Positions 5,688 to 64,000 of a DNA stretch of 64,000 bases are shown piece after piece. Both the position numbers and the translations under genes were made by a program. Numbering within the stretch: the first letter of the stretch is position 1; each line of letters opens with the position of its first letter. Location of the stretch: IMG/VR virus record IMGVR_UViG_3300038393_002515; one strand, given 5' to 3'. Origin of the DNA: a virus. Under the pieces are notes generated by a model. The model was not told where the DNA came from, did no database searches, and saw nothing but the letters and a program-made list of their open reading frames with translations.

Positions 5688-6437
5688 ATGACGGGACTGC
5701 GGATCAAAGGCCGTCCCGAGCACATCATCATCTCCACCAGCACCGCCATGGTACCGGCGCCATCCCGTCCGGAGCCGGTCGTCCACGACGTCAACGGCTA
5801 CTACGCCCGGCTCGGCGTGCTGCCGACCGCTAGCAAGCGGGAGATCCGCGAGGCGTACCAGGCCCTCGGCGGCCCTGACGACGCCGAGCTGACCGAGATC
5901 TTCAAGGTGCTCATCAACGCCAAGCGCCGGGCCGCGTACGACCGCATGCAGTCCGGCAGCACCTTCGTCGATCGGTCCTCGGTCCAGGCGATCCTGCGCC
6001 AGGCTGCCGCTCAGGCCTCCCGGGAGAACGCCGAATACGGCACCGGAAGGACCGCCAGAGACATTATTGAAACTCTGGCCGAGGAGACGGAAAATCCGCT
6101 CCTCCGATTTCTTGCTTCGGGTTCCGCCGAAGGCTTTGATGATGACGGAGACGGGGACCGCCATCCCCCATCCAACCCCCCGGCCACATGGCCGTACTCC
6201 TACCTTCTACTGGCCTCTACCTGCGACGACGTCGGCAGGCTGGCCCGGTGGCGGGAAGGGCTCGCGCAGGCCCTGACGGGCCGTGGATGCACCCACTTCG
6301 CCGTGGGATTCCACGCCTCCAATGACCTGCCGTTCCTTGTGGTGCGAGACATCGGAATTCCCGTCGTCTTTCTCCACGAACGGGCCATAGTGACCGGGGA
6401 GTTGATTACGGCAGCCGCCACTGCCGTCGTCGCATAA
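5688..6437 (+). CDS. J-domain-like protein (HPD replaced by GPD)
   Basis: YYARLGVLPTASKREIREAYQAL..GPDD...AKRRAAYD resembles the DnaJ J-domain helices. The 3' third has atypical codon usage. Confidence 0.45.
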   Translation: MTGLRIKGRPEHIIISTSTAMVPAPSRPEPVVHDVNGYYARLGVLPTASKREIREAYQALGGPDDAELTEIFKVLINAKRRAAYDRMQSGSTFVDRSSVQAILRQAAAQASRENAEYGTGRTARDIIETLAEETENPLLRFLASGSAEGFDDDGDGDRHPPSNPPATWPYSYLLLASTCDDVGRLARWREGLAQALTGRGCTHFAVGFHASNDLPFLVVRDIGIPVVFLHERAIVTGELITAAATAVVA

Positions 6438-48116: not shown

Positions 48117-48658
48117 GCAGCCTGCAGACGCCGGAGCCGCTTCAGCGGCTGACCCGCAACGCCTACCACCTCAACGTGCACTCCCTGGTCGACTGGGCCG
48201 AGCGCCATTACGTCGACTTCGACCCGCCGTACCAGCGTCAGGCCGTGTGGGGCGTGCGACGTCGTCAGCGACTGATCATGTCCCTCCTTCAGCAGCTCGC
48301 CGTCGGCGGCATCACGGTCAACAAGCGCGACGACCGGCTGACCTGGCCGAACGAGGCCGCGTTTGCCGTCATCGACGGCAAGCAGCGTTGGCAGACGCTG
48401 CTGATGTTCATGCGCGACGAGCTGGCCGTGCCGCGCTCCTGGTGGGACTCCAGCGAGCTGACCGACGCCTACGAGGAGACCCCCGACGGCCCGCACGTGC
48501 GGTACTCCCAGCTCACCCAGCGCGGACAATTCCGGTTCGATGCCCTCGCCATCCCGTTCGATGAGATGTACCTGAAGAGCGTGGACGCCGAACACAAGGT
48601 GTTCCGCCTGCTCAACACGGGCGGCCTGGCCCAGGGCGAGGAGGACGACGACAGGTGA
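48113..48658 (+). CDS. DUF262 (ParB-like/GmrSD N-terminal type) domain protein
   Basis: DFDPPYQRQAVW and VIDGKQRWQTL motifs. No HNH/DUF1524 half is present. Confidence 0.6.
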   Translation: MSSLQTPEPLQRLTRNAYHLNVHSLVDWAERHYVDFDPPYQRQAVWGVRRRQRLIMSLLQQLAVGGITVNKRDDRLTWPNEAAFAVIDGKQRWQTLLMFMRDELAVPRSWWDSSELTDAYEETPDGPHVRYSQLTQRGQFRFDALAIPFDEMYLKSVDAEHKVFRLLNTGGLAQGEEDDDR

Positions 48659-48736
48659 CGGCCGGGCATGTCAGTGCCCTCCCCTACGGTGGCGCCGAGC
48701 GTGATGCCCGGCGCCACATGCGTTTTCGGCACCGGG

Positions 48737-48767
48737 TTGACACATGCATCTATGGATGCGTTAGGGT
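48737..48767 (+). promoter_or_regulatory. promoter-operator block, copy 4
   Basis: TTGACA-N19-TAGGGT; ATGCATCTATGGATGCGT at 48744-48761. Confidence 0.65.
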
Positions 48768-48798
48768 GGAGTCAAGCCCGCCAAGGAAGGTGCACACC

Positions 48799-50502
48799 AT
48801 GACCCAGTCGCCCACCCTCGCCGAGACCCTTGCGATCCGGCCCGAGCAGCTCACCGGCCTCACGCCGGTCGAGGTCGACCGCTACAACGCCGTGCTGTGG
48901 ACCGAGTACGCCCGCCTCGCCGCCGCGATCGACAAGGCCGCCGACGGCATCCACAGCGCGCTGCTGCAGCGGAAGAAGAGCGAGCGGCACGGGCGCGGCT
49001 ACACCCAGGTGTGGCCGACGACGTTCGCCGAGGCCCTGCGCACGGCGCAGGAGCACCTGACCACCGGCTGGGAGCCGGACCAGGCCACCCGGGTGCAGCA
49101 CGGCCTGTACCGCGAGGGCGCCTACGCCGCGAGCCTGCGCAAGGCGCTGGACTTCTACAACGCCTTGGGCGCCGCGCGGCAGCGGCTCAGCGACGGCCCC
49201 GGCGCCGTCCTCGACGGTGAGTTCACCCGGCGGGGCGGCTGGTCGCGCATGTACCTGTGCACCTCCGACGGCGGCCACATCCACAGCGGCCGCCAGTGCC
49301 CGAGCATCGGCCCGCGCACCGAGCTGGCGTGGCTGCCGGACGTCTCCGGCATGGACTGGCGCGAGGCGTACAAGGCCCTGCCGCAGAACCTCTCCGCCGG
49401 GAGCCCGGCGATCATGTGCACCAAGTGCTACCCGGACGCCCCGGTCGACTGGACCGTCAAGCAGGCCGACCCGACCGTCTGTCCCGGCTCCGGCAAGTCC
49501 GCGTGGGAGCACATGACGGAGCACCAGCGCGGCCTGTACATGAAGTACGGCAAGTGCCCGTACTGCCCCGACGACGCCGACCTCGTGAGCGTGACCAGCG
49601 GGTGGAAGTTCCGCAAGCACAAGACGGCCGCCCAGGCGGCGCCGGTCGCCGAGGAGCAGCCCGCCCCGCCCGCCCCGAAGGCGGCCGCCCCCAAGCTGAC
49701 GCCGACCCAGCAGAGCGCCCTCGACCTCATGCGCTCCCGCCACACCGGCATGATCCACAGCGGCGAGGGCTTCGCCATCACCACGGTGGACGCCCTCGCC
49801 CGGCACGGCCTGTGCACGGTGGAGAAGTCCAGGCGCGCCGACGGCGTCCTCCGCACCACCGCGTACACCTACTTCGAGGCCACCCTGACCGACAAGGGCT
49901 GGGAGGGCCACGAGCGCCCCGCCGAGCCCGGCCCCGCCTACGGCGAGCCCACCCCGAACGACGAGCTCGGCAAGGGCGACCGGGTGATCAACATCCACAC
50001 CGGCTCCGAGGGAGTGTGGCAGGGCCCCAGCCAGCTGGGCGGCTGGAGCGTCCGGGAGGACATCGGCGCGACGTTCAACATCCATGCGGGCGGCGGCGAT
50101 CACTGGCGCCTCTTGGAGCGGGCCCCTGAGGCGCCTGCCGAGCCCGTCGTTGAGCCGCAGGAGGCCGCCAGCGCCCCGGCCGAGGACGACGTGCCCCTCG
50201 ACCAGGACAAGCCCGTGACGCACGCCTACGGGCCCGCCGGGGTCCGCTACGAGCCCGGCATGCGGGTGACCCGGCGCGGCCGTGACGGCATGTGGGAGCA
50301 CGGGGAGGTGACCGAGGTCTTTGAGGCCGCCCACACCCGGGAGCCGCGCCTGCGCTTCACGGTGGACGCCTACCAGGCCGCCCCGCCCCGGCGTAAGCAG
50401 AAGTGGATGGACAACAAGCCCGGCAAGCGCCGGTCGACCGAGCCCCGCTCGGCAATCGCCCTCGTCGCCGACAAGGACTTGAGCCCCGAAATCATCGCCT
50501 GA
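48799..50502 (+). CDS. hypothetical protein (567 aa ORFan)
   Basis: AAGGAAGG SD after block 4. Confidence 0.6.
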   Translation: MTQSPTLAETLAIRPEQLTGLTPVEVDRYNAVLWTEYARLAAAIDKAADGIHSALLQRKKSERHGRGYTQVWPTTFAEALRTAQEHLTTGWEPDQATRVQHGLYREGAYAASLRKALDFYNALGAARQRLSDGPGAVLDGEFTRRGGWSRMYLCTSDGGHIHSGRQCPSIGPRTELAWLPDVSGMDWREAYKALPQNLSAGSPAIMCTKCYPDAPVDWTVKQADPTVCPGSGKSAWEHMTEHQRGLYMKYGKCPYCPDDADLVSVTSGWKFRKHKTAAQAAPVAEEQPAPPAPKAAAPKLTPTQQSALDLMRSRHTGMIHSGEGFAITTVDALARHGLCTVEKSRRADGVLRTTAYTYFEATLTDKGWEGHERPAEPGPAYGEPTPNDELGKGDRVINIHTGSEGVWQGPSQLGGWSVREDIGATFNIHAGGGDHWRLLERAPEAPAEPVVEPQEAASAPAEDDVPLDQDKPVTHAYGPAGVRYEPGMRVTRRGRDGMWEHGEVTEVFEAAHTREPRLRFTVDAYQAAPPRRKQKWMDNKPGKRRSTEPRSAIALVADKDLSPEIIA

Positions 50503-50512
50503 CCCGCATGGA

Positions 50513-50547
50513 CGGCCCGCCCCCAGACCGGGGCGGGCCGTGTTGTT
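50513..50547 (+). terminator. intrinsic terminator
   Basis: CGGCCCGCCCC/GGGGCGGGCCG stem followed by TGTTGTT. Confidence 0.65.
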
Positions 50548-50556
50548 CCTGAAGGA

Positions 50557-50587
50557 TTGACACACGCATCTATGGATGCGTTAGGGT
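50557..50587 (+). promoter_or_regulatory. promoter-operator block, copy 5
   Basis: TTGACA-N19-TAGGGT; palindrome at 50564-50581. Confidence 0.65.
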
Positions 50588-50627
50588 GAAGCTATCGATC
50601 CCGCCAAGGAAGACGAAGGAGGGCCGC

Positions 50628-51920
50628 ATGGCCACCCCCGAGAACGAGAAGAAGATCCGCCTTCAGACGGTGGGTTGGGTGCCCGCCGACGAGGTCGGAA
50701 ACCTGGAGGTCGGCGACCGGATCATGTGGAACGGCGGCAACACCTCCGAGGTCACCGACATCGAGCAGGTGTCGCGCTGCTTCCGGATGATCTCCCTCAA
50801 GTCCTCGGAGACCGGCAAGCCGCAGACGCCGCGCAGGCTCAAGACCACCGCCCTGGTCGCCCGCATCCCGCAGGCCAAGGAGGAAACCCCGACCACCGCC
50901 GAGATCCCGCCCGTCCGCCTGGCCATCGGTACCCGTGTGCGGCACTCCGGCCAGGAGTGGGCCACCAGCGTGCAGGCGCCCGAGGGCACCGCCATCGTGC
51001 TCGGTGTCGGCCGCACCCACGCCGATGGGTCGGTTGAGTACAAGGTACTGGCCGGACAGGACTTCTCCCGGCACATCGGCGGAGACAACCCCATGAACAC
51101 GCCGAAGGAGTGGAACAGCCTCCGCGTGCGGGAGGTCGCGCCGCCGCCCTTCGAGATGCCGGAGCCGCCCAACGGGTATCGGTTCGAGATCGAGCCGGGC
51201 CCGGGGCGGGTCACGGTGAAGATGTACGCCGACGGCATGGCCGCTCCCGTTCACCAGGACTGGACCGGGCACCCCATCGACAGCCCCGTCATCCCCGGCA
51301 TGGCCCGGGAAATGATCAGAGTGGAGACGGCCCACCGGGAGGAGACGGCCGCGCTGCTCGCCCTCGACGACGCCACCCTCTACGAGGTGTGCGAGTACCG
51401 GGGGAGCATGCCGACCGGGGACGCCGTCACGATGACCGGGAGCGCCGCGCGCGCCCGTCTCCAGGCCGCCCGCGAGGAGGCCGGGCCCGAGCGGCTCCAC
51501 GGCCGCAACTCGCCCCGTTTCACCCTGGAGCACTCTGGTGCCCACTGGTGGGCCACCACGCACGCCTACACCGCCGCCGGGCACCGGGACCAGGGGAACC
51601 GGCGCCACATCGCGGTGCAGCCCCTGGTTACGGCCCGCGCCGCCCAGGTGCTCATGGAGTACACGGGAGACGGCTGCATCACCCCGGTGGAGCAGCCCAG
51701 CGTGAGGGCGTTCGGCCCGTGGGTGCGGCCGGTGCCCAACTTCCCTGAGGACGTGGTGGTGCACTGGGTGACGTGCGGCACGCCGGTGCAGCCGGGGGCT
51801 GAGCGGTACGCGGACCACATGGAGACCTACCGGGCCGCCCTGGAGGGCGCCGGGTGGGAGTTCAAGGCCGCCACCGCCGACGGCGGCATGGTGTTCCAGG
51901 AGCCCGAGCGCACGGCCTGA
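50628..51920 (+). CDS. hypothetical protein (ORFan)
   Basis: AAGGAGG SD after block 5. Confidence 0.6.
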   Translation: MATPENEKKIRLQTVGWVPADEVGNLEVGDRIMWNGGNTSEVTDIEQVSRCFRMISLKSSETGKPQTPRRLKTTALVARIPQAKEETPTTAEIPPVRLAIGTRVRHSGQEWATSVQAPEGTAIVLGVGRTHADGSVEYKVLAGQDFSRHIGGDNPMNTPKEWNSLRVREVAPPPFEMPEPPNGYRFEIEPGPGRVTVKMYADGMAAPVHQDWTGHPIDSPVIPGMAREMIRVETAHREETAALLALDDATLYEVCEYRGSMPTGDAVTMTGSAARARLQAAREEAGPERLHGRNSPRFTLEHSGAHWWATTHAYTAAGHRDQGNRRHIAVQPLVTARAAQVLMEYTGDGCITPVEQPSVRAFGPWVRPVPNFPEDVVVHWVTCGTPVQPGAERYADHMETYRAALEGAGWEFKAATADGGMVFQEPERTA

Positions 51921-51951
51921 CCTGCATAAACAGCGGCATGGCCCCACTCGC

Positions 51952-51980
51952 TAGACACGCATCTATGGATGCGTTAGGGT
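51952..51980 (+). promoter_or_regulatory. promoter-operator block, copy 6 (variant -35)
   Basis: TAGACA-N17-TAGGGT; palindrome at 51957-51974. The block is bracketed by a 13-bp inverted repeat. Confidence 0.6.
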
Positions 51981-52039
51981 GGGGCCATGCCTGCCGGGGA
52001 AACCCGGCAGGAACCGACACTCCCGCCTAGGAGGAACCC

Positions 52040-52645
52040 GTGAGCGAGCAGCTGTTCAACGCCGGTGACCGCGTCCACATCGCCGAGAGCGAGCGCAACG
52101 GTCACACCTTCGGTGAGGCGTTCGGCCGCGTCGACCGCGACTACGGCGGCGAGTGGGTGAAGGTCTGCGTCGACGGCGAGCAGTACCCGTACCCGCACGA
52201 CGTCCCCGCGATCCCCCGCGAGCTGCTCACCCTGGTCGAGGCCGCCGAGGACGACGACGAGGAGGGGGAGACCGCGCCGCAGCCGCGCCGCGTCGAGTCG
52301 AGCAGCCAGGACCTGACCAGCGAGACCGCGTGGGACGGCACGAACTACCCGACGCACATGGTCGAGGTCTGGATCATGAACGACGGTAAGTTCATCGACA
52401 TCGCCCGCAACTTCGCCCGGTTCGACGAGACCGGCAAGCAGCTCGGCGAGTACCTCGGCCGCGTGCTGTTCGACCGGCGCGCGCTGCCCGCCGAGGAGCG
52501 CCGCCGGATCACCCGGGACACCGCCCACACGCTGGACCTGGTCGCCGGTGACCTCACGCAGGACGGCGACGACACCCCCGCCCGCGAGGCGCTGAAGCGG
52601 GTCGACTGGAAGCGCATCGCCTCCAGCCTGACCGACGGACAGTAG
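52040..52645 (+). CDS. hypothetical acidic protein
   Basis: AGGAGGAA SD precedes the GTG start. Confidence 0.55.
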   Translation: MSEQLFNAGDRVHIAESERNGHTFGEAFGRVDRDYGGEWVKVCVDGEQYPYPHDVPAIPRELLTLVEAAEDDDEEGETAPQPRRVESSSQDLTSETAWDGTNYPTHMVEVWIMNDGKFIDIARNFARFDETGKQLGEYLGRVLFDRRALPAEERRRITRDTAHTLDLVAGDLTQDGDDTPAREALKRVDWKRIASSLTDGQ

Positions 52646-52653
52646 GCACGACG

Positions 52654-52717
52654 GCCCCGGCCCCGCCCACCCAGGGCGGGGCGGCGGACCGAGCCGGGTT
52701 CGATGCCCGGCCGGGGC
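52654..52717 (+). ncRNA. tRNA-like intercistronic element 1 (acceptor-like stem + hairpin + T-arm, no D-arm)
   Basis: GCCCCGG pairs with CCGGGGC. The T-arm is CCGGG-TTCGATG-CCCGG, and there is an 8-bp GC hairpin. Confidence 0.4.
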
Positions 52718-52755
52718 GCTCATCACCCACCCGCCACCACCACGAGGGGAACCCC

Positions 52756-53391
52756 ATGGCCGAGCGCCGCACCCGAGTCAGCAAGAGGACCGCCAACAAG
52801 GCCGCCGCCGAGGTGGCCGAACTGCTCGGCACCCTGGAGGGCTGGCAGAAGCGCAACCCCAACGTTGCCGACTACCGCGTGACCGAGGCCCTTGAGCACC
52901 TGCGCCGCGTCTCCGTCCTCGTGGGATACCTGGTCGACGACCGGGACCCCGAGGGGGACGCCGCCCGCGCCAAGCTGCGCGCGACTCGCGACGCCGAGGC
53001 GGCCCGAGGGATGGCCGACGCCGTTTGGAGCGACCTGCGAGACGGGAACGCCCACGTGGCCGACGTGTCCCCCAAGGGCGACGGTAAGACCTACACCCCG
53101 CCCACGGCCCTGCTGTTCCACTACGCCAGCCGTGACGTGCGCCTGACCCGGAGGAACGGCGCCGTGTACGCCACGATCACCGCCGGGCCGGGGACCGGCC
53201 GGGAGTGGTGGTCGAGCGCCGGAGCCGAGGAGGCCGTCAAGGCCATGGTTCGGGACCTCTACGGCGTCCACTGCGCCCACGAGTACGGCACCGGCCGCGA
53301 CTCCTGCCCCGGCTGCGACTACACCGAGGAGCAGTTCGAGGACCGCTACGCCGGGCGTCTGGGCATGATGCCCGCCAACCCGCTCGCCTGA
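52756..53391 (+). CDS. hypothetical protein
   Basis: GAGGGGAA SD precedes the ATG. Confidence 0.55.
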   Translation: MAERRTRVSKRTANKAAAEVAELLGTLEGWQKRNPNVADYRVTEALEHLRRVSVLVGYLVDDRDPEGDAARAKLRATRDAEAARGMADAVWSDLRDGNAHVADVSPKGDGKTYTPPTALLFHYASRDVRLTRRNGAVYATITAGPGTGREWWSSAGAEEAVKAMVRDLYGVHCAHEYGTGRDSCPGCDYTEEQFEDRYAGRLGMMPANPLA

Positions 53392-53398
53392 CACCACC

Positions 53399-53466
53399 GC
53401 CCCGGCCCCGCCCGCCGCCGACCGGGCGGGGCACGGTCCGAGACAGGTTCGATGCCTGTCCGGGGC
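53399..53466 (+). ncRNA. tRNA-like intercistronic element 2
   Basis: Same architecture as element 1. The T-stem ACAGG/CCTGT carries two compensatory pair changes, and the T-loop is identical. Confidence 0.4.
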
Positions 53467-53502
53467 ACTCCTGACCGTCCCGCCAGACACAAGGGGGAGA
53501 GC

Positions 53503-54240
53503 ATGACCACCGCAACGCAACCCCGCCCGTCCGTCTCCAACGTCCGCGCGCTGGCCTCCTGGCTCGCCGACAACGACCTTCCCGGCCAGCGCAGCATGAC
53601 CGCCATCACGCGCCTGCGCCGCGAGCGCTCCACCAACCTGCCGCCCGTCGCCACCACGCCGGAGCCGGTGACCGCCCGGCTCGCCCGCCGCCTGGTCGCC
53701 GAGGCCCGCCGGGAGATCCGGCGCCGGGGCGGGGAAACCGTGATCCTGGGCAAGAACGACAGCGTGAGCGGCTCCCTGGTGCTCGCCGACCGCGACCGCG
53801 CGCAGCGCATCATCCTGGTGCGCGCCGAGGGCTGGCGCTACTACTCCAGCCGCTTCGGATCGCGGCACGTCGAACTGGCCTACCTGTACGGCCGCGACGA
53901 CGCCGGACCGTGGGCCGTGCGCGTCCCCGGCAGCATCACCACGGTGCGCGAGGGGCTCGCCTGGCTGACCCCGGCCGCCGTGAAGCAGGCCCGCGCCGAG
54001 AGGCGCCGGGTGCGCCGCCAGGGCGACGTGTACGCCGTGGAGACCACCGCCCGCCGCGACGGCCGGGGCGTGGCCGACCTGCCCGAGGCCCACGAGTGGC
54101 GCGCGTCCACGCGCCACCTGGTCCACAACCCCGACGACGGCCGCAAGCACCGCCCGCTGCGCCTGCCGTACCCGGTGGAGTTCATCCCCCAGCGCGCGTA
54201 CGAGATGGGCCGCAGCGGCGCGCGCGGCGCCGCCGACTGA
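53503..54240 (+). CDS. hypothetical protein
   Basis: AAGGGGGAGAG SD precedes the ATG. Confidence 0.55.
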   Translation: MTTATQPRPSVSNVRALASWLADNDLPGQRSMTAITRLRRERSTNLPPVATTPEPVTARLARRLVAEARREIRRRGGETVILGKNDSVSGSLVLADRDRAQRIILVRAEGWRYYSSRFGSRHVELAYLYGRDDAGPWAVRVPGSITTVREGLAWLTPAAVKQARAERRRVRRQGDVYAVETTARRDGRGVADLPEAHEWRASTRHLVHNPDDGRKHRPLRLPYPVEFIPQRAYEMGRSGARGAAD

Positions 54241-54273
54241 CCACCATCCACCACCACACCCCGAGGGGGAGCC

Positions 54274-54660
54274 GTGAACATCCCGCGCATGGTGCGCAAG
54301 TACGCCCAGGATGCCCACAAGCGCTACACGACCGAGCTGGAGGCGATGCGCGAGCGCATCACGGAGCGCCCGGCAGATCTCACCGGAGACCGCTTCACCG
54401 AGTTCCACGCCGCCCGCGAGCTGTACAACCTCTACGCCAAGCCGCTTGCCCTGGACGCCGTCGGCAACAGTGCATACGACGACGCCAAGGTGTTGGACCG
54501 CATCGAGGACGCACGCCGCACCGCGCTCCGGTGGCTGCTGACCAGCAAGCCCCCCATGAGCGGCGTCATGGTCGTAGAGCAGCAGATCGCCGAGAACGAG
54601 GCGCGCCGGTTCCTCTCTCAGATGCAGGTGCTCGACATGCAGGAGGGCGAGGAGCAGTGA
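54274..54660 (+). CDS. hypothetical protein
   Basis: GAGGGGGAG SD precedes the GTG start. Confidence 0.5.
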   Translation: MNIPRMVRKYAQDAHKRYTTELEAMRERITERPADLTGDRFTEFHAARELYNLYAKPLALDAVGNSAYDDAKVLDRIEDARRTALRWLLTSKPPMSGVMVVEQQIAENEARRFLSQMQVLDMQEGEEQ

Positions 54661-55061
54661 GCAAGAGCAGCGCCGCTCTGCTGGCCGAATTGCAGACGAA
54701 GGCGACGGCCGCCGTCGCCCACCTGGAGGCCATGCGCGAACGCATGCGCCGCCAGCTGGACCAGGGTTTTTACCTGGACGAGTTCGCCGCTTATGACCTC
54801 TTGTTGGCCGAAGGCATTCATGCCCAGTACCGGGAGATCGGCATCACGGCCGACGGTACCCTGCGCCGCCACGACGGTGAGACCGACGCCGACATGATCC
54901 AGGGCGCCCGCAACATCCGCCAGGAGATCCGGCGCAGGCTGGTCGAGGTGCCCGAGAGCATTCAGGTTGGCCTCTCCGCCGTCCGCCAGCACCAGACCCG
55001 GGAGGGCATGCGCCGCTTCCTTCGGGAGACCGAGTTCCTCGCCAAGGAGGTGACCGAGTGA
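54657..55061 (+). CDS. hypothetical protein
   Basis: GTGA overlap. Confidence 0.5.
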   Translation: MSKSSAALLAELQTKATAAVAHLEAMRERMRRQLDQGFYLDEFAAYDLLLAEGIHAQYREIGITADGTLRRHDGETDADMIQGARNIRQEIRRRLVEVPESIQVGLSAVRQHQTREGMRRFLRETEFLAKEVTE

Positions 55062-55121
55062 GCCACCCGCGCCACCCCAAGAGGCCGAAGAGGCCGAGCC
55101 GCCCCCGGTAGGAGAGAGATC

Positions 55122-55358
55122 GTGAGCGAGATGCAGTGGCCCGCCCGGGGGGCGACCGTGCTGGTTCAGGACGTCATGAGCGAGGCTCTCGCGCAGATGA
55201 GGACCAGCAAGGAGCCGCCCGCCCGTAGGGGCGTGGTGGTCGAGACGCCCGCCGACGGCGGCGTTCATCTGACCATCGACACCGGCGGCGAGTACGGATG
55301 CGTGACCTACCCCGCGTTCGGCTTCGCCTCCTCGCACACCTGGAAGGGAGCCGCCTAG
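55122..55358 (+). CDS. hypothetical protein
   Basis: AGGAGAGAG SD precedes the GTG start. Confidence 0.5.
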   Translation: MSEMQWPARGATVLVQDVMSEALAQMRTSKEPPARRGVVVETPADGGVHLTIDTGGEYGCVTYPAFGFASSHTWKGAA

Positions 55359-55449
55359 ACGGTAGCCATCGGCGGGAGTCCAGCAGGCCAGTGACCAGGG
55401 CAGATACGCCCCGGTTGCTGGCCTGCTGGCATTGGTGCGCTCAAGGGGC

Positions 55450-55480
55450 TTGACTCATGCATCTATGGATGCGTTAGGGT
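55450..55480 (+). promoter_or_regulatory. promoter-operator block, copy 7
   Basis: TTGACT-N19-TAGGGT; palindrome at 55457-55474. Confidence 0.65.
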
Positions 55481-55524
55481 GGGACCAGTCCCGCCGGACA
55501 CCACCACCCGAAGGAGGGCCCACC

Positions 55525-57489
55525 ATGGCCACCACGCGACTCAGCGACACGATGATCACTGCGCTGCTGGACGCGCTCACCCACAGGGGGAGCGACGGCC
55601 GCTATCAGCTTCTCACCCGGGGCGCCACCCGCGCCGCGCTGGAGGCTCGCGGCAAGGTCGAGCGAGAGGACGGCCGCGACAACTACGGACGGCCGCGCAC
55701 GCACCACTACCTCACCGCCGACGCCGTCACCTACCTGCGCAACGCGCTGGAGTACACGCTGAACCAGCGCGGCGAGGACCGTGACCGGGTGTGGCAGGAG
55801 TGGCTGAACGCTGATCGCCGCCACGAGTGGGCCTTGATCGACTTCCTGGGCCTGACGGCCGACACGTACGAGATCACCACCACCACGCCCCAGGAGCGCA
55901 AGCCGCACCGCGAGACCCTCGGCCGCGCGGACGCCTGGGAGCGCATCGGCAACACCCTGCGCAACGGCCAGCGCATCACCCTGGACGACGGCGCCATGAC
56001 GGCACACACCAAGCTGGGTGCCACCTGGACGTTCACGCCGATCCGCCCGGCCGCCGAGGAGGCCCCGGCCGCGCCCGAGCCGCGCCCGGCCGCCGAGGTG
56101 CTCGCCGCCGACCCGATCCCGGCGGACACCTCGGTCCTGGAGGGCATGCCGGGCCAGCCGGTCGGCCGCGAGGGCGTGCCCACCACGGACGCGGTCACGC
56201 ACGAGGCGTACGTGGTCCAGATCCGCAACAGGGACGCGTGGCAGCTCCCCAACCACGACGACGGCGCCCACATGACGCGCGCCAGCGTGATCAGCTCGCT
56301 GGCGTGGGCGCGCCAGGCCGCCCCGGGCCACACGCGGGCCTCGGTCGACACGGACGGCACGGTGTACGTGTCCACGGGCCGCCAGGCCGCCCGCTACATC
56401 CCCGCCTCGCTGCTCGCCGACTACTCCGCCGACACCTGCCCCGGCTGCGGCACCGCGTACGCCACGAACGGCGACGGCCCGTGTGACGGCTGGGCCGCCC
56501 TGCCCTCCCTGCCGGTCGCCGAGGAGGCCGACCCCGAGGCCAAGCCGTGCGAGGGCTGCGGCGCCCCTGCGGGTGAGCCGTGCGAGCCCATGAGCATGTG
56601 CGAGGCCGCCCGCGAGGAGGCCGTGTCGGCGCGGCTCGCCGAGGAGGACGGGGAGCGCGGCATGGTCTACGGGCCGCACCGCATCACCAACACCGGCGAC
56701 GACATCGAACACACGGCCCAGGACGGCGGCAAGTACGGCATCCGTGCGTTCGAATGCACCCGGTGCCACAAGCGCGCCATCCTTGCTGACTTCGAGTACG
56801 GCCGCGTGGAGTGCACCGAGGAGGCCGAGGCCGAGTGGGCCCGCGAGCGCGCTGAGGGGCTGCTCAACGACCACTTCTTCAAGGGCGCCACCGCGTATGA
56901 GGTGGACGTGCCCACCGACGACAAGGGCGGGAGCGTCACCTACACCCACGACCGGGAGACGGCCGCGCGGTTCGTCGCTGCCCTGCTCGGCCTGGGGGCG
57001 ACTCACGGATGGTTCCGTGATGGTCTGCGCCTGACGCACGACGGCAGTGTGAACAAGGTGCGGCCCGTTGTTGCGCGGGTGCAGGAGGACGAGGAGGCCG
57101 AGCCCCTCGACGAGATGGGCACTGATGCCCTCCTGGAGGTGCTGCGCGAGCACGCGGGCGAGCTCCCCGCCGACAGCACGTTCGCCAAGGCGTGGGCGCT
57201 CATGGACCGCATCTTGACCGACGGCGGCATCGAGTGCCTTCCCGCGCCGTGGGACGGCTACGCCGACCAGGCGGAGCCCATCGACCTGCAGGCGCTTCCG
57301 CCCCGCGCCAAGTACGTGACGGTGGGTGAGCTGCAGGTGGGTGACGTGTTCGTGACGCGCTGCGCGTGGATCGTGCGCGCCATCGACGGCGGCACGTTCA
57401 CCGCTGAGCGGTGGGACGGTGAGCAGACGGTGACTCAGACCGTGCCGGAGAGCACGAAGGTTCTGCGGACGCGCCGCGCCCAGGGCTGA
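55525..57489 (+). CDS. hypothetical protein (654 aa ORFan)
   Basis: AAGGAGG SD after block 7. Confidence 0.6.
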   Translation: MATTRLSDTMITALLDALTHRGSDGRYQLLTRGATRAALEARGKVEREDGRDNYGRPRTHHYLTADAVTYLRNALEYTLNQRGEDRDRVWQEWLNADRRHEWALIDFLGLTADTYEITTTTPQERKPHRETLGRADAWERIGNTLRNGQRITLDDGAMTAHTKLGATWTFTPIRPAAEEAPAAPEPRPAAEVLAADPIPADTSVLEGMPGQPVGREGVPTTDAVTHEAYVVQIRNRDAWQLPNHDDGAHMTRASVISSLAWARQAAPGHTRASVDTDGTVYVSTGRQAARYIPASLLADYSADTCPGCGTAYATNGDGPCDGWAALPSLPVAEEADPEAKPCEGCGAPAGEPCEPMSMCEAAREEAVSARLAEEDGERGMVYGPHRITNTGDDIEHTAQDGGKYGIRAFECTRCHKRAILADFEYGRVECTEEAEAEWARERAEGLLNDHFFKGATAYEVDVPTDDKGGSVTYTHDRETAARFVAALLGLGATHGWFRDGLRLTHDGSVNKVRPVVARVQEDEEAEPLDEMGTDALLEVLREHAGELPADSTFAKAWALMDRILTDGGIECLPAPWDGYADQAEPIDLQALPPRAKYVTVGELQVGDVFVTRCAWIVRAIDGGTFTAERWDGEQTVTQTVPESTKVLRTRRAQG

Positions 57490-61253: not shown

Positions 61254-62546
61254 ATGAACGCCACCACCGTCGAGACCGTCACGCTGATCTTCGAGATGAC
61301 CCCGTGCGGGCGCTGCGGAGGCACCGGCCAGCACCTGTACAACCAGCGTGACGGCCGCGTGTGCTGGGGCTGCTCCGGCGCCGGTGAGCACCTCTCCCCC
61401 CGGGGCAAGCGCGCCGCCGAGGCCCTCGATGTGGCGATGCGCGAGTCGGCGGGCACCGTGGCCGTCGCCGACATCACGCCCGGCATGCGCATCAAGTGCC
61501 CGGCGCACGGCGGCCTCGACGGCCAGGCGCGCCCCTGGAACTACAAGCCCGCATGGCGCACCGTGGCCTCCGTCGAGATCACCGAGTACACCGGGCGCGG
61601 CCAGGAGGGCGGGTACATCATCGACGTGCCGTGCGTGCGCGCCTCGCTCGTCTTCGAGGACGGCAAGACCTGGACGGCGGAGTCTTCCGACCACCCCGCC
61701 TACTGGGCCAAGGGCGCGTTCCGCACGACCTACAGCGAGCGCTCGTTCTGGCTCGGCGGCGAGGAGGCCCGCGCCGCCCGCATGGAGGTGCGCCGCGCCA
61801 TCGCCCGCCGGTTCGTCGGCGCCTGGCTGGAGGGCGAGGAGCCCCCGGCGCGCCCCGAGCGCAAGCCCCGCACCCCCAAGCCCGCCCAGGAGGCCCCCGC
61901 GCCCAAGCCGCTCGCCTCCAACAGGTTCGCCGGTGACTGCCGCAAGTGCGGCACCCGGGTGGAGGCGGAGCAGGGCGAGCGCGAGCGCGTGGACGGCCGC
62001 TGGGAGGTCCAGCACAAGGCCGGTGAGTGCCAGGAGCGCCCGGCCGCCGAGGAGGCCCAGGAGGCGCCCCAGGGGGCCGCCGCTCCCGCCCAGGAGCGCC
62101 CGGCTCGCCCCGCCATGGTGAACAAGTTCCCCGGCAAGTGCGCGCGCTGCGGTGTGCGGGTGCTGGCCGAGCAGGGCGAGCGGGTGCGCGTGGACGGCGA
62201 GTGGATCACCCGGCACCGTGAGGGCGAGTGCCCCGCCAGCACCACGACCATGATCACCGAGGAGGGCATGTACGCCCGCGAGGGGGAGGTGTACCGGGTC
62301 CGTCGCTCCGAGAGCGGCAACCTCTACGCCGAGCGTCTCACCCCGCCCGCCCACGCGGACGGCGGCGCCACGTTCACGTACGACCCGGCCGCCGTGTACG
62401 CCCTCACCCCCGCCGACCGCATGACGGTGGAGGCGGCCGCCGAGGTGGGCCGACGGCTTCACGCGTGCTGCGTGTGCGGGCAGCGCCTCACCGACCCGGC
62501 GAGCGTGAAGCGGGGGATCGGCCCGGTGTGCCGCAAGCGGGTGTAG
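61254..62546 (+). CDS. multi-zinc-ribbon protein with DUF6011-like C-terminus
   Basis: CGRCGGTG..CWGCSGAG; two repeats of C..CG.RV.AEQGER.RVDG.W..H..GEC; CCVCGQRLTDPASVKRGIGPVC. Confidence 0.6.
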   Translation: MNATTVETVTLIFEMTPCGRCGGTGQHLYNQRDGRVCWGCSGAGEHLSPRGKRAAEALDVAMRESAGTVAVADITPGMRIKCPAHGGLDGQARPWNYKPAWRTVASVEITEYTGRGQEGGYIIDVPCVRASLVFEDGKTWTAESSDHPAYWAKGAFRTTYSERSFWLGGEEARAARMEVRRAIARRFVGAWLEGEEPPARPERKPRTPKPAQEAPAPKPLASNRFAGDCRKCGTRVEAEQGERERVDGRWEVQHKAGECQERPAAEEAQEAPQGAAAPAQERPARPAMVNKFPGKCARCGVRVLAEQGERVRVDGEWITRHREGECPASTTTMITEEGMYAREGEVYRVRRSESGNLYAERLTPPAHADGGATFTYDPAAVYALTPADRMTVEAAAEVGRRLHACCVCGQRLTDPASVKRGIGPVCRKRV

Positions 62547-62556
62547 CAGGGCGCGC

Positions 62557-62595
62557 CACGGGGGCCGGGTGGACCGCCACTGCCCGGCCCCCGTG
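62557..62595 (+). terminator. hairpin terminator
   Basis: 13-bp stem CACGGGGGCCGGG/CCCGGCCCCCGTG. Confidence 0.6.
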
Positions 62596-62615
62596 GGCGA
62601 GTTTCCGCAACCCGC

Positions 62616-62646
62616 TTGACCCACGCATCTATGGATGCGTTAGGGT
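62616..62646 (+). promoter_or_regulatory. promoter-operator block, copy 11
   Basis: TTGACC-N19-TAGGGT; palindrome at 62623-62640. Confidence 0.65.
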
Positions 62647-62677
62647 GGACTACCCGCCGTTGATAAGGAGCATGATC

Positions 62678-64000
62678 ATGAACAACCTCGACACCCTCCA
62701 GAGCATCCTCGACGGCTACTACCACGACGGCGCCGACCTGGAGACCCTCGCCGCCCAGGTGAGCCGCCTCGCCGCCGAGACCCGCGCCCCCTCCCTGCTC
62801 GCCGCCGCCGAGGGCTACTACGGCAACACCCTCGACGCCGAGGAGTTCATCGGCCTCGCCGCCAGCGCCCGGCGCGAACTGACCAACCCCCAGCCCCAGG
62901 AGGCCCCCACCATGCCGACCACCCCCGCCCCCGCCGAGGACACCGTGACCCTGCGCATCCCCGGCCGCGTCGCCGCCTTCTTCCAGGACCGCACCCCCGA
63001 CGCGCACGCCAGCCTCGACGCCATGGACCGCGACATTGCCCGCGCCCTGGACACCGCCGAGGAGCGCCGCCACGGCAAGACCGGCACCGTCACCATCATG
63101 ATCACCACCCCCGCCGTCGCCGCCGGATTCCTCGCCACCCTCGCCAACCTCTGCGAGATCGAGTTCGACGCCGACGACGCCGACACCAAGACCGCCACCG
63201 CCGGACTCGCCTACGTCCAGCGCTGCCAGGCCCAGGGCATCACCACCACCATCCCCGACGACTACCGCATGCAGGACCCGGCCGCCCAGGCCGCCCTCGA
63301 CGCCGACCGCGCCCAGGCCGCCCAGGAAGCGCAGCAGCGCGCCGCCCAGCGCGAGGAGAACACCACCCACCGCGCCGCCTGGGAGTCCCTCACCCGCGAG
63401 GAGCGCCAGGAGCGCACCACCGCCCTCCTCGACGCCGCGTGCACCGTGCTCGGCCTCCAGCGCGCCGACCGCCGCAACTGGCTCGACATGGGCAGCGTCG
63501 CCGCCAGCGTCACCGACGGCCGCCTGTACATGGAGGTCCGCCGCCTCGCCGACCCCACCGCCCAGCCCGCCCTCGACGCCGCCCGCAACGCCCTGCAGGC
63601 CGCCGGATGGACCGTGACCGACTGGGGCACCCACTTCTACGCCCAGGCCCCCCAGGAGCCCGCCCAGGGGCCCCAGGAGGCCCGGGAGGTCCTGTTCACC
63701 GACCACCACCGCTGCGAGCACCGCAAGACCGCCAGCGCCGACCACGCCCCCACCTGCCCCGTGTACGACGAGGGCGCCACCGCCGAGCGCTGCACCTGCC
63801 ACTACTCCGACGCCCTGTGCGAGGAGCGCCAGACCACCGCCACCCCCGTCACCGTCGAGTGGACCCACACCGTGCGCGGCCACCGCAACGGCACCGCCCG
63901 GATCGGCTCCACCACCTACCGGATCACCCACATCACCCACGCCAGCCGCAAGCGCGGCGCCCTGGGCGACCACCTCGCCCACACCCCCGCCGCCGACGGC
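62678..64000 (+). CDS. hypothetical protein, 3'-truncated by window edge (absent from supplied ORF track)
   Basis: AAGGAG SD precedes the ATG. 441 codons are open to the window end and nearly all end in C or G. The 507-aa minus-strand ORF here is a shadow. Confidence 0.7.
   Translation, partial: MNNLDTLQSILDGYYHDGADLETLAAQVSRLAAETRAPSLLAAAEGYYGNTLDAEEFIGLAASARRELTNPQPQEAPTMPTTPAPAEDTVTLRIPGRVAAFFQDRTPDAHASLDAMDRDIARALDTAEERRHGKTGTVTIMITTPAVAAGFLATLANLCEIEFDADDADTKTATAGLAYVQRCQAQGITTTIPDDYRMQDPAAQAALDADRAQAAQEAQQRAAQREENTTHRAAWESLTREERQERTTALLDAACTVLGLQRADRRNWLDMGSVAASVTDGRLYMEVRRLADPTAQPALDAARNALQAAGWTVTDWGTHFYAQAPQEPAQGPQEAREVLFTDHHRCEHRKTASADHAPTCPVYDEGATAERCTCHYSDALCEERQTTATPVTVEWTHTVRGHRNGTARIGSTTYRITHITHASRKRGALGDHLAHTPAADG

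Follow-up and report, generated by a model that had tools for sequence, protein, structure and literature searches.

Two short elements, E1 and E2, are located between consecutive genes of a large Streptomyces phage-like plasmid, and each has the sequence and predicted fold of a miniature tRNA-like structure. Judged by sequence comparison, they belong to a wide family that is spread over actinobacterial phages and plasmids, which goes beyond the original prediction made for this locus. The comparative evidence is best matched by RNase P/RNase Z punctuation of the operon transcript, and from that evidence we infer both the cleavage and its effect on expression. The window referred to below is the whole stretch of DNA that was analysed, with a length of 64 kb.

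Architecture and location of E1 and E2

The tRNA-like architecture proposed in the original prediction was correct in every detail when the sequences of the acceptor, GC hairpin, connector and T-arm were examined (Table 1). Both elements combine a 7-bp acceptor with a coaxial 5-bp T-stem, and the T-loop residues T54 T55 C56 R57 A58 are closed by the G53-C61 pair. The hairpin reads CCCCGCCC-ACCCA-GGGCGGGG in E1, where the helix covaries across the family, and CCCCGCCCG-CCGCCGAC-CGGGCGGGG in E2. An alternative 6/6 register exists in E1, in which G7 pairs with the C located 3' of the hairpin. The T-stem differences between the two copies had been described as compensated; both of them are, and the TTCGATG loop and GGWCCGAG connector are common to E1 and E2. 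Single-sequence folding of E1 yielded the three-helix shape (z = -3.2). The fold obtained for E2, calculated for 53400-53467 and one base off register, contained the hairpin and the T-arm (z = -3.7) and lacked the closing acceptor stem. E2 was found at full length by both covariance models, R1 and R2, with scores of 98 and 76 bits, respectively; the corresponding scores for E1 were 52.3 and 65.4 bits.

Table 1 Coordinates of E1, E2, their structural parts and the neighbouring genes in the window
Feature	Coordinates	Strand	Basis
Gene upstream of E1, 201 aa, without Pfam or PHROG family	52040..52645	+	
E1 (whole), mini tRNA-like structure, 64 nt	52654..52717	+	sequence, fold, covariance model, descriptor
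E1 acceptor 5' strand GCCCCGG	52654..52660	+	sequence, descriptor, RNAalifold
E1 GC hairpin, 8 bp, loop ACCCA, replaces D and anticodon arms	52661..52681	+	sequence, fold
E1 connector CGGCGGACCGAG, includes conserved GGWCCGAG	52682..52693	+	sequence
E1 T-arm CCGGG / TTCGATG / CCCGG	52694..52710	+	sequence; T-stem covariation in family
E1 acceptor 3' strand CCGGGGC	52711..52717	+	sequence
E1 trailer G73 C74 U75 C76, then leader to ATG 52756	52718..52755	+	
Gene between E1 and E2, hypothetical protein of 211 aa with CPGC motif at the C-terminus	52756..53391	+	
E2 (whole), mini tRNA-like structure, 68 nt	53399..53466	+	sequence, fold, covariance model
E2 acceptor 5' strand GCCCCGG	53399..53405	+	sequence
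E2 GC hairpin, 9 bp, loop CCGCCGAC	53406..53431	+	sequence, fold
E2 connector CACGGTCCGAG	53432..53442	+	sequence
E2 T-arm ACAGG / TTCGATG / CCTGT	53443..53459	+	sequence
E2 acceptor 3' strand CCGGGGC	53460..53466	+	sequence
E2 trailer A73 C74 U75 C76 C77, then leader to ATG 53503	53467..53502	+	
Gene downstream of E2, 245 aa, hypothetical	53503..54240	+	

Both elements lie on the sense strand relative to the flanking genes. The preceding stop codons end 8 nt 5' of E1 (at 52645) and 7 nt 5' of E2 (at 53391). A gap of 35-40 nt to the next starts had been claimed, in agreement with the measured distances of 38 nt between E1 and the start at 52756 and 36 nt between E2 and the start at 53503. The ATG at 53452 of the earlier reading falls within E2; the ATG preceded by a Shine-Dalgarno (SD) sequence is that at 53503. 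The leader that follows E1 is CA-rich and unstructured and carries CCCGCC and the SD sequence GAGGGG. CCCGCC is also present in the leader after E2, together with the SD sequence GGGGGAG, and a near-identical leader was found in pRLB1-9.1. Homologues of the gene between E1 and E2 are likewise flanked by such elements in other replicons. The ten neighbouring proteins matched no Pfam family; in PHROGs, their matches were limited to families without an assigned function, apart from a weak one to an HNH endonuclease. No Ro/Rsr gene was seen in these Pfam and PHROGs scans of neighbouring proteins.

Detection of the elements in the window

ARAGORN called no tRNA and no tmRNA in the 64 kb. Rfam returned nothing at the gathering threshold in the window, and no tRNA, tmRNA or Y RNA-like match at E<=10. 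The tRNA model RF00005 gave no match in the window at E<=10 or in five related loci at E<=1. A canonical tRNA gene was defined by a cloverleaf that includes a D-arm and a 7-nt anticodon loop on a 5-bp stem, and by detection with a tRNA finder or with RF00005 at a score of at least 29 bits. E1 and E2 have neither the cloverleaf nor the finder detection of such a gene, and they do have the canonical acceptor/T-stem and T-loop. The claim that they are not tRNA genes was thus borne out: D-arm, anticodon loop and encoded CCA are all missing, and neither ARAGORN nor Rfam, two of the checks that had been suggested, recognised E1 or E2. The weak Rfam matches were at chance level and consisted of a ZMP-ZTP match of 26 bits within coding sequence and of miRNA and Scr1601 fragments.

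An acceptor-agnostic descriptor identified E1 and E2 as the sole sites in the window, compared to a mean of 0.42 sites per shuffle (50 block shuffles). A third occurrence of GGTTCGATGCC, at 48534, lies within coding sequence without accompanying stems and was rejected as chance. BLAST of the region against cultured phages gave no match, and against plasmids it matched Streptomyces replicons only. Short-query BLAST with the elements themselves produced mostly GC-rich noise. One of these matches, on a Kitasatospora plasmid (L004), was set aside as a different intergenic double-hairpin repeat that is not tRNA-like.

Covariation and conserved features

A covariance model was seeded from two near-identical copies and then iterated, because MAFFT misaligned the copies. 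The resulting model-fitted alignment comprised 41 copies, 38 of which were distinct. Among the 38 distinct copies in this CM-fitted alignment, 95.1% of cells pair; shuffling gave 81.7% and sliding at most 59%. Double-sided changes were observed in 15 of the 21 pairs. None of 500 shuffles reached any of the covariation measures. RNAalifold, applied to an independent MAFFT alignment, recovered the same three helices. Non-compensatory stem changes in homologous loci would have spoken against the proposed structure; across the family, the structure is instead maintained by compensatory change, with double-sided changes at 15/21 pairs. The asymmetry between G:U (16) and A.C (9) combinations was only modest.

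The features conserved across the family are the acceptor and T-arm, including G53, T54 T55 C56 R57 A58 and C61, while the lower hairpin varies freely. Part of this acceptor/T-arm conservation was imposed by the search patterns, yet the same pattern was present in copies retrieved by BLAST, by the covariance model or by an acceptor-free scan. The 12-bp stack of acceptor and T-stem is kept, either as 7/5 or as 6/6. Within the Streptomyces clade the acceptor GCCCCGG/CCGGGGC is frozen, with G:U variants only, whereas the other helices drift.

Distribution and placement of the family

Searching for further copies with a covariance model, as had been advised, together with descriptor scans, yielded more than 40 copies in Streptomyces plasmids, phage-plasmids, integrated elements, IMG/VR viral contigs and Gordonia phages in culture. 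Many of the pattern matches in genomes and viral sequences proved to be real tRNAs (Arg, Leu, Thr, and Val as called by ARAGORN) or chance matches in coding sequence, and these were removed. The elements are 46-69 nt in size, and the GC content of the replicons that carry them ranges from 0.56 to 0.72. One copy is present in Gordonia phage Kudefre, at about 72.5 kb, and six are present in VanLee (NC_073474.1), in consecutive intergenic gaps at about 78.7-81.5 kb; downstream of each VanLee element come a hairpin, a leader with the conserved motif CACGGCACCCAAC, and an SD sequence. Three consecutive elements occur in each of pRLB1-9.1, the MH60 contig and locus L083, and the three elements of locus L070 have acceptors that differ and covary. 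Those of pRLB1-9.1, which is carried by Streptomyces sp. RLB1-9, lie at 86228-86291, 87120-87182 and 88413-88480 of NZ_CP041653.1.

Every copy examined is in the sense orientation relative to its flanking genes. When 22 Streptomyces-type copies were measured, a stop codon was located 6-9 nt 5' of the element in 18 of the 19 that could be evaluated, and an SD sequence and start codon 32-45 nt 3' of it in 20 of the 22. Two placements depart from the intercistronic arrangement. At L001 (6208-6271) the element is at the 3' end of a gene, immediately 5' of a promoter-like site, and at L002 it forms a 5' leader, 390 nt from the preceding gene. Both placements fit a signal that acts wherever it is transcribed. 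An apparent 22-member paralogous gene family beside the elements was rejected as an artefact, since genes had been counted as both upstream and downstream neighbours and were joined by single linkage. No copy is annotated in the annotated records examined, including the curated SEA-PHAGES genomes of Kudefre and VanLee, ARAGORN made no call at any family copy, and a literature search found no description of such elements.

3' context and relation to phage tRNA genes

A purine follows the acceptor, at N73, in 37 of 38 copies, and the next residue, N74, is C in all 38; no search pattern imposed the identity of either position. C74 is likewise present in 117 of 119 genuine full-length tRNAs from actinophage tRNA arrays. 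CCA is encoded in none of the 38 elements, compared to 89 of the 119 actinophage tRNAs. The elements share with actinophage tRNA genes the acceptor/T-arm stack, the T-loop, purine 73 and C74, but lack the D-arm, the 7-nt anticodon loop and an encoded CCA, and they are scattered between ORFs rather than grouped in arrays. The same pattern also retrieved genuine phage genes for tRNA-Arg and tRNA-Thr whose acceptor is of the GCCCCGG type. Versions of 69 nt with a canonical D-arm and a truncated anticodon arm also exist, and these intermediates suggest that the elements and phage tRNAs share common descent. Sequestration of the SD sequence by the CUCC trailer was considered and rejected; folding was no stronger for the leaders than for shuffled sequences, and no consistent pairing was seen.

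Proposed role in transcript processing and competing explanations

The acceptor and T-arm form the domain that is recognised by tRNA-processing enzymes, and cleavage by RNase P and RNase Z is therefore the most likely mechanism. From sequence and by analogy with t-elements, we consider it about an even chance that the elements are mimics of the tRNA top half and act at the RNA level as signals for processing of the RNase P/RNase Z type. E1 and E2 would be transcribed within a sense-strand polycistronic mRNA, and each would fold into a three-way junction that copies only the top half of a tRNA, with a 12-bp stack (7+5, equivalently 6+6) capped by a canonical T-loop and a single generic GC hairpin where a tRNA has its D and anticodon arms. 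Host RNase P would cut at the 5' edge of the element, 7-8 nt past the upstream stop, and an RNase Z-type tRNA 3'-end endonuclease would cut 3' of the purine-73/C74 trailer. The operon transcript would in this way be divided into units whose ends are defined. A short CA-rich leader and an SD sequence, preceded in lower-GC phages by a 5' hairpin, would open the downstream message, and a tRNA-like RNA of 46-69 nt would be released or retained as an end-cap. Among the comparative observations, the conservation of acceptor and T-arm, a C74 as in phage tRNAs, the regular sense placement and the six VanLee copies in series appear to be best fitted by processing.

Several considerations count against processing, among them the modest G:U versus A.C asymmetry and the fitting of the covariation alignment to the model. 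The frozen acceptor of the Streptomyces clade is one of them, as a purely structural RNase P/Z signal needs no such invariance. An RNase P cut would also leave the 3' end of the upstream message unprotected, and the tight gap of 6-9 nt between stop and element counts against processing alone and suggests coupling to translation termination. An uncleaved element that acts in cis as a structural insulator, a stabiliser or a translational-coupling device is possible, though we consider it unlikely. Its closing helix would join the upstream stop to the downstream ribosome-binding site or shield mRNA ends, and a terminating ribosome would melt the 5' acceptor strand, linking upstream translation to the structure. 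Such a device is consistent with the fixed distances (stop 6-9 nt upstream, start 32-45 nt downstream), with the very stable, all-GC helices, with the leader motifs conserved beside the element (CCCGCC in Streptomyces copies and CACGGCACCCAAC in VanLee), and with the likeness to the start-associated SAS/ESAS of cluster K mycobacteriophages (PMC3203893). However, a simple closing helix would suffice for it, which leaves the T-loop motif, the 12-bp stack in both registers and purine-73/C74 unexplained, and there are copies without a close preceding ORF (L002) or directly before a promoter-like site (L001a). The strict stop/start placement, which argues for a role in cis, speaks against a released mini tRNA-like RNA that acts in trans, gains CCA and perhaps an amino acid, and serves as a decoy or sponge for factors that attack tRNA acceptor ends or T-arms (e.g. 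anti-phage toxins) or as a cofactor of a phage protein. We regard a trans-acting product as rather improbable; the flanking genes encode diverse hypothetical proteins with no consistently adjacent partner, and acceptors vary in VanLee and L070. In its favour, the invariance of the Streptomyces-clade acceptor while the other helices covary points to sequence-specific recognition, several copies per genome occur in phages and phage-plasmids, and polyvalent proteins whose domains include ART and 2H-phosphoesterase (RNA-repair-like) are encoded on the same replicons. It is also conceivable, at a low probability, that minihelices excised by RNase P/Z and bearing CCA additionally form an abundant pool of acceptor-end decoys against tRNA-targeting host defences or tRNA-modifying enzymes. 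Such a pool, a long shot in our estimation, would act during infection or plasmid establishment, its Streptomyces identity would reside in GCCCCGG/CCGGGGC and R73, and early or accessory operons would be systematically punctuated.

A role at the DNA level, in which plasmid and phage genes are shuffled at the elements as recombination hot spots or as cassette junctions, whether attC-like or left over from tRNA-derived att sites, is very improbable. Homology between the window and pRLB1-9.1 does stop at 52722, at the 3' edge of E1, and homology to NZ_CP108308 begins at 53399, at the 5' edge of E2; gene content between elements varies among replicons, and tyrosine recombinases are encoded elsewhere on pRLB1-9.1. 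Breakpoints at conserved intergenic repeats are nevertheless predicted by ordinary homologous recombination. All copies examined run in the direction of transcription, strand-specificity is seen in both the T-loop motif and the covariance-model score (65-76 bits in the sense strand compared to <=23 bits for the antisense matches listed), covariation preserves pairing and not sequence, with sense-strand G:U wobbles in the acceptor, reading of the sequence revealed no attC core sites (GTTRRRY, R''/R'), and no integrase is adjacent. The suggestion that the elements are att relics found no support in view of the complete 5' acceptor strand, the covarying stems, the sense orientation and the several copies per operon at fixed stop/start distances. 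Transcription terminators or attenuators between genes are suggested by GC-rich hairpins right after stop codons and by the copy at L001 6208-6271, which is followed by a promoter-like site. The trailers of E1 and E2, GCTCATCA and ACTCCTGA, contain no U-tract of the kind that follows the hairpin in a Rho-independent terminator, and a terminator scan of 50300-55600 flagged neither E1 nor E2, although it did pick out 50512-50541, where a T-rich tail follows a hairpin. The next SD sequence and start lie within about 40 nt with no promoter-like site between, six VanLee elements in series would abort the operon, and T-loop conservation would be unexplained; termination is accordingly hardly to be expected. 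The least probable explanation, to which we attach almost no weight, is that the elements are non-functional, either pseudogenes left by the decay of tRNAs or GC-rich palindromes that arose by chance. Genes for tRNAs are numerous in phages, and the 69-nt versions with a D-arm suggest tRNA descent. Against this, compensatory change keeps the structure across distant replicons with GC contents of 0.56 to 0.72, placement is regular, the descriptor finds 0.42 sites per shuffled window, and the copies, whose T-stems and hairpins differ, are not recent duplicates.

Comparison with known systems

In mitochondrial tRNA punctuation and in the mascRNA-type signals of MALAT1 and MEN-beta, RNase P and RNase Z are drawn to a tRNA or tRNA-like fold within a long transcript, which sets the ends of the flanking RNAs. 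The mascRNA is about 60 nt long, with a degenerate anticodon arm and a cloverleaf-like shape, and these systems are eukaryotic. Whereas mascRNA keeps its cloverleaf-like shape, E1 and E2 are without any D-arm and lie between translated cistrons. The t-elements of plant mitochondria share the minimal design of E1 and E2 and direct processing by RNase P and RNase Z (Forner et al. 2007, PMC1920247). The mRNA 5' and 3' termini that these two enzymes generate coincide with the t-element ends, and the element can accumulate after excision (PMC1920247). Like t-elements, E1 and E2 have a non-canonical tRNA-like fold with an acceptor and a T-arm of the GGTTCRANYCC type beside mRNA coding regions, and they lie on the sense strand between cistrons. 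Their sequence GGTTCGATGCC agrees with GGTTCRANYCC at 10 of 11 positions (G for Y at position 60), and many family members match it fully, e.g. GGTTCGACTCC. T-elements are organellar, whereas the present family is found in bacterial phage and plasmid operons, where processing is only predicted; its members are also smaller and more uniform, have a single hairpin for the lower half and no sequence homology to t-elements, and occur serially (at up to six consecutive junctions) at fixed stop/start distances.

The SAS of cluster K mycobacteriophages is a conserved 13-bp sequence located 3-8 bp before the start codon, and the ESAS consists of conserved 17-bp inverted repeats (PMC3203893). These too are conserved intergenic modules in one orientation, with inverted repeats, just 5' of many actinophage starts (PMC3203893). 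The ESAS has neither a T-loop nor an acceptor-like closing helix, whereas E1 and E2 are tRNA-like and conserved in structure, a distinction drawn from the description of the ESAS. What the two kinds of module share is only the broad notion of a conserved unit ahead of the start codon. The tRNA-like domain of tmRNA, the YrlA module and viral 3' tRNA-like structures share with E1 and E2 the acceptor/T-arm mimic with a T-loop. Unlike tmRNA and YrlA, E1 and E2 have no tag reading frame, no ARAGORN tmRNA call, no Rfam match to a tmRNA or Y RNA-like family and no Ro/Rsr gene among the neighbouring proteins scanned, and unlike the viral structures they are not at the 3' end of an RNA genome and have no pseudoknotted acceptor.

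Significance

The family is absent from Rfam and missed by tRNA finders, and a covariance model of it would add a new annotation class for phages and plasmids. At 46-69 nt, the elements are small natural parts for insulation or processing that may be usable for building operons in Streptomyces. The frozen acceptor, universal C74 and fixed stop distance offer experimental handles on recognition by tRNA enzymes. Expression in Actinobacteria is strongly shaped by RNase J, RNase E and leader structure. If the elements are processed as proposed, phages and plasmids of bacteria would use the tRNA punctuation logic of mitochondria and mammalian MALAT1. This would be a third, independent occurrence of the principle, and would provide a simple rule by which long actinobacterial phage operons are cut into individually stable messages.

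Results

The original prediction placed two tRNA-like elements between genes of the window, and reading of positions 51900-53700 confirmed both, designated E1 and E2 (see table). E1 lies 8 nt behind the stop of gene 52040-52645 and E2 7 nt behind that of gene 52756-53391; SD-preceded starts follow at 38 nt (52756) and 36 nt (53503), respectively. The flanking genes had no Pfam match and no informative PHROG match. Folded alone, E1 formed the three-helix junction (z = -3.2 versus dinucleotide shuffles). For E2 (53400-53467, one base off register; z = -3.7) the hairpin and T-arm were predicted and the closing acceptor stem was not; full-length E2 was recovered by both the first (R1) and the iterated (R2) covariance model of the family. 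Registers 7/5 and 6/6 are interchangeable in E1 and E2: the last G of the connector can pair with the first C of CCGGGGC and, in the 6/6 register, G7 can pair with the C directly 3' of the hairpin. Both registers give an acceptor/T stack of 12 bp, the length it has in tRNA.

An acceptor-agnostic descriptor (T-loop, paired T-stem and any fully paired acceptor, register 7/5 or 6/6) matched only E1 and E2 in the window, against a mean of 0.42 in block-shuffled windows. A third exact GGTTCGATGCC at 48534 lies in coding sequence without the stems and was dismissed as chance. The elements had been judged not to be tRNA genes, and ARAGORN indeed called no tRNA or tmRNA across the whole window; an Rfam 15 scan of the window had no hit at the gathering threshold, and relaxing the cutoff to E<=10 brought up no tRNA-related family. 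Positions 53305-53371 (+), within the coding sequence of gene 52756-53391, gave a weak ZMP/ZTP riboswitch-like match (26.2 bits, where the gathering score is 39; E = 0.054) that is most likely chance.

Elements, associated modules and promoter-like sites. Element sequences are given 5' to 3' as acceptor 5' strand / GC hairpin / connector / T-arm / acceptor 3' strand.
Feature	Coordinates	Strand	Sequence
E1, 64 nt	window 52654-52717	strand of surrounding genes	GCCCCGG / CCCCGCCC-ACCCA-GGGCGGGG / CGGCGGACCGAG / CCGGG-TTCGATG-CCCGG / CCGGGGC
E2, 68 nt	window 53399-53466	strand of surrounding genes	GCCCCGG / CCCCGCCCG-CCGCCGAC-CGGGCGGGG / CACGGTCCGAG / ACAGG-TTCGATG-CCTGT / CCGGGGC
Promoter-like site before gene 50586	window 50545-50585	+	TTGACA-cacgcatctatggatgcgt-TAGGGT
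Promoter-like site before gene 52040	window 51950-51985	+	TAGACA-cgcatctatggatgcgt-TAGGGT, embedded in 10-bp hairpin ATGGCCCCAC...GTGGGGCCAT
VanLee start-associated modules	L133 3025-3072, 3868-3915, 4203-4252, 4570-4621, 5072-5140, 5660-5708		
Solirubrobacterales tRNA-like gene, example	L013 5332-5400	minus	

The window is 69% GC, carries nearly all genes on one strand, and encodes a DnaB-like helicase, a DnaG-like primase, a Pol III alpha subunit and a DUF2637 protein. It shares partial synteny with the 154-kb circular Streptomyces plasmid pRLB1-9.1 (NZ_CP041653.1), which is also entered in IMG/VR as a viral genome (L101). Gene content, synteny and this listing identify the window as a large Streptomyces plasmid or phage-plasmid. 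Also encoded is a 915-aa "polyvalent" protein (29013-31760, +; counterpart pRLB1-9.1 61468-63954) with ADP-ribosyltransferase (ART-PolyVal) and 2H phosphoesterase/2'-5' RNA ligase-like domains. This type of protein is characteristic of conjugative elements and phages, and the RNA-repair-like domain is of possible interest, tRNA mimics being on the same replicon. Both promoter-like sites have a spacer that contains a palindromic operator, and they resemble promoters under repressor control serving this gene block; a related TAGACA...TATAGA lies 3' of the first pRLB1-9.1 element (L001 6275-6310). A simple sigma-70 scan flagged none of these sites.

The family was collected by seeding R1 from two copies, pattern-scanning one-genome-per-species contigs, iterating to R2 and then scanning IMG/VR. 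Parts of the acceptor and T-loop were prescribed by the collection patterns, so in pattern-derived copies they carry no independent weight; they do in copies from BLAST, covariance models or an acceptor-free connector pattern. Elements of the same architecture occur at three consecutive gene junctions of pRLB1-9.1 (L001 6208-6271, 7100-7162, 8393-8460), once on plasmid NZ_CP108308 (L002 4001-4067) and on other Streptomyces plasmids and phage-plasmids (the MH60 contig, strain cg35, and loci L055, L048, L032, L079/L104, L083, L089/L106). A 57-nt subfamily adjoins FtsK/TraB-like genes of chromosomal contigs, probably in integrated conjugative elements. Lower-GC viral contigs also carry members (L093, L068, L070, L073, L085, L097, L098, L108, L080), with three elements each in L070 and L073; L085 is the cultured Gordonia phage Kudefre, whose element, unannotated between genes 139 and 138, is common to its relatives Syleon, Sephiroth and Octobien14. 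Versions of 69 nt have a canonical D-arm but an "anticodon" arm of 4 bp with a 5-nt loop, and look like intermediates from real tRNAs to the minimal form. True family members were not called by ARAGORN.

Covariation was assessed in an alignment of 41 copies (38 distinct rows) fitted to the model, alongside a smaller set of 22. Standard pairs filled 95.1% of cells, a share that fell to 81.7% when columns were shuffled and to no more than 59% when partners were slid, and 15 of 21 pairs had changed on both sides; 0 of 500 shuffles reached any of five covariation measures. Run on 11 copies in a plain MAFFT alignment, RNAalifold returned the same three helices with 5 compensatory pairs, preferring a 6-bp acceptor. 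All copies examined were oriented as their genes, covariance scores were 65-76 bits on the sense strand and at most 23 bits on the antisense strand where such a match was listed, the acceptor variants U:G and G:U were present on the sense strand, and G:U outnumbered A.C overall by a modest 16 to 9. These results favour folding of the sense strand. The elements are very probably a real, selected family of tRNA-like RNAs.

Placement was regular among Streptomyces-type copies, with a stop codon 6-9 nt upstream in 18 of 19 evaluable copies and an SD and start 32-45 nt downstream in 20 of 22. The first pRLB1-9.1 element lies at the 3' end of a gene, directly before the promoter-like TAGACA-N-TATAGA, and the L002 element is a 5' leader far from the preceding gene. 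In the trailer of 38 copies, N73 was a purine in 37, N74 was C in all 38, N75 was T in 27 and N76 was C in 31; CCA was never encoded. Genuine full-length tRNAs of actinophage tRNA arrays had C74 in 117 of 119 and encoded CCA in 89 of 119. C74 being universal in the elements and in these tRNAs, the elements have a 3' context in common with real tRNA genes of this virus group. The leader after Streptomyces copies is CA-rich and no more prone to fold than its shuffles. Lower-GC phages have a hairpin that starts directly after N73-C74, ahead of a conserved leader.

Gordonia phage VanLee (L133) carries elements in six consecutive intergenic gaps of 100-185 nt, 5-8 nt behind the stop in five and 31 nt in the fourth. 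These mini elements (41-47 nt) combine a 6-bp acceptor and a 6-bp T-stem with the T-loop TTCRANN, and their hairpin is tiny or missing. R-C-G and a GC hairpin come next; the conserved leader (CAC)GGCACCCAAC then leads into an SD rich in A and G (mostly GAAGGAGAA), ahead of the start codon. The start-associated module of hairpin, leader and SD also follows mini elements in L073, and is reminiscent of SAS/ESAS in cluster K mycobacteriophages; the elements themselves have the general idea alone in common with those motifs (PMC3203893).

Several look-alikes were encountered. A coherent tRNA-like gene of 68-70 nt (mostly 69) was found in 17 Solirubrobacterales genomes (L006, L009, L013, L014, L019, L020, L023, L029, L033, L040, L042, L043, L045, L046, L051, L053, L056). 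It has the acceptor GCCCCGG/CCGGGGC of the elements (one GCCCTGG variant), a 4-bp D-like stem (loop CGGAY) set directly against the acceptor without U8/N9, an anticodon-like loop YTCACRAA in most copies, and a T-arm that is mostly GCGGG-TTCGAMT-CCCGC. ARAGORN read a tRNA-Val(CAC) in some copies, placing the anticodon at position 31, and passed over others; the Rfam tRNA model matched neither of two loci scanned (L013, L006). The gene adjoins a HipA toxin gene in L013 and may be a miniature tRNA or tRNA mimic. Kitasatospora plasmid NZ_CP108486.1 (L004) carries a different repeated intergenic module after at least three consecutive genes (~4150-4350, 4980-5190, 6000-6170). In order, this module has a GC hairpin of 14-16 bp, a second hairpin of 10 bp whose loop is ATCGA, then CCGGGGC and one more conserved segment. 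It was rejected as a family member: BLAST linked it to E1 via GC-rich words only, and its sense strand lacks a T-arm and acceptor closure. ARAGORN also called a 94-nt "tRNA-Pro(cgg)" (L037 3172-3265, -; L050 4960-5053, +), antisense inside a small sense-strand ORF just upstream of 57-nt elements; the odd length, like the position, suggests that GC-rich hairpins triggered a false call.

Discussion

What is conserved is exactly the "top half" of tRNA, namely the 12-bp acceptor/T stack, the T-loop and R73-C74, with the lower half replaced by any stable hairpin. The top half is recognised by RNase P, RNase Z, the CCA-adding enzyme and T-loop modification enzymes; the lower half is needed for decoding only. 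Because the conserved part is the domain known to tRNA enzymes, we propose that the elements act as processing signals within polycistronic transcripts. In this scheme, cleavage by RNase P at +1 and by a tRNA 3' endonuclease after N73/C74 would release a tRNA-like RNA of 46-69 nt and leave the messages on either side with defined ends. Downstream, the message would begin with an unstructured CA-rich leader or a protective 5' hairpin; the hairpin would make sense where the host has the 5' exonuclease RNase J. The chances are about even that the element works as such an RNase P/Z-type signal.

Two observations fit this proposal less well. The Streptomyces-type acceptor was GCCCCGG/CCGGGGC in all copies, with G:U variants only, including copies collected without fixing the acceptor; VanLee and L070 acceptors vary and covary (GCCCTG/CAGGGC, GCCTGG/CCAGGC, TCCCGGA/TCCGGGA). 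A structural signal has no need of a frozen acceptor; recognition of the sequence itself, or homogenisation by recombination, may lie behind it. The constant 6-9 nt from stop to +1, at which a terminating ribosome would invade the acceptor stem, suggests coupling to translation. The frozen acceptor and fixed distance keep alive a non-cleaved stabiliser or coupling device, which we consider unlikely, and a trans-acting mimic or decoy RNA, which is distinctly doubtful.

Synteny breakpoints at element edges lend some support to a role in DNA-level recombination, but strand specificity and RNA-type covariation contradict it, the elements did not pass as attC sites when tested for attC features, and we regard this role as highly improbable. 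It is just as improbable that the elements are transcription terminators: E1 and E2 both lack a U-tract, unlike the canonical-looking terminator at 50512-50541 (+), a 12-bp GC hairpin followed by GTTGTTCCTG, directly 3' of gene 48655-50502 and 5' of a promoter-like site, by which the replicon does use hairpins with T-rich tails. That the elements are pseudogenes or chance is scarcely credible.

The elements failed the tests for a tRNA, a tmRNA, a Y RNA-like family and an intrinsic terminator. Mitochondrial tRNA punctuation and mascRNA use the same punctuation principle as the proposed processing signals. Of known systems, the plant mitochondrial t-element comes closest, sharing this minimal design; there, mRNA ends are made by RNase P/Z and the excised element accumulates (PMC1920247). 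By sequence and predicted structure, the elements are candidate t-element-like signals. Since we found no description of such elements in Streptomyces, plasmids or actinophages in the literature, and Rfam 15 has no model for the family, we rate tRNA-like punctuation in bacterial phages and plasmids, and its serial use, as a new form of a kind already known. The family, very probably real, is widespread and unannotated, and the mechanism proposed for it is directly testable.
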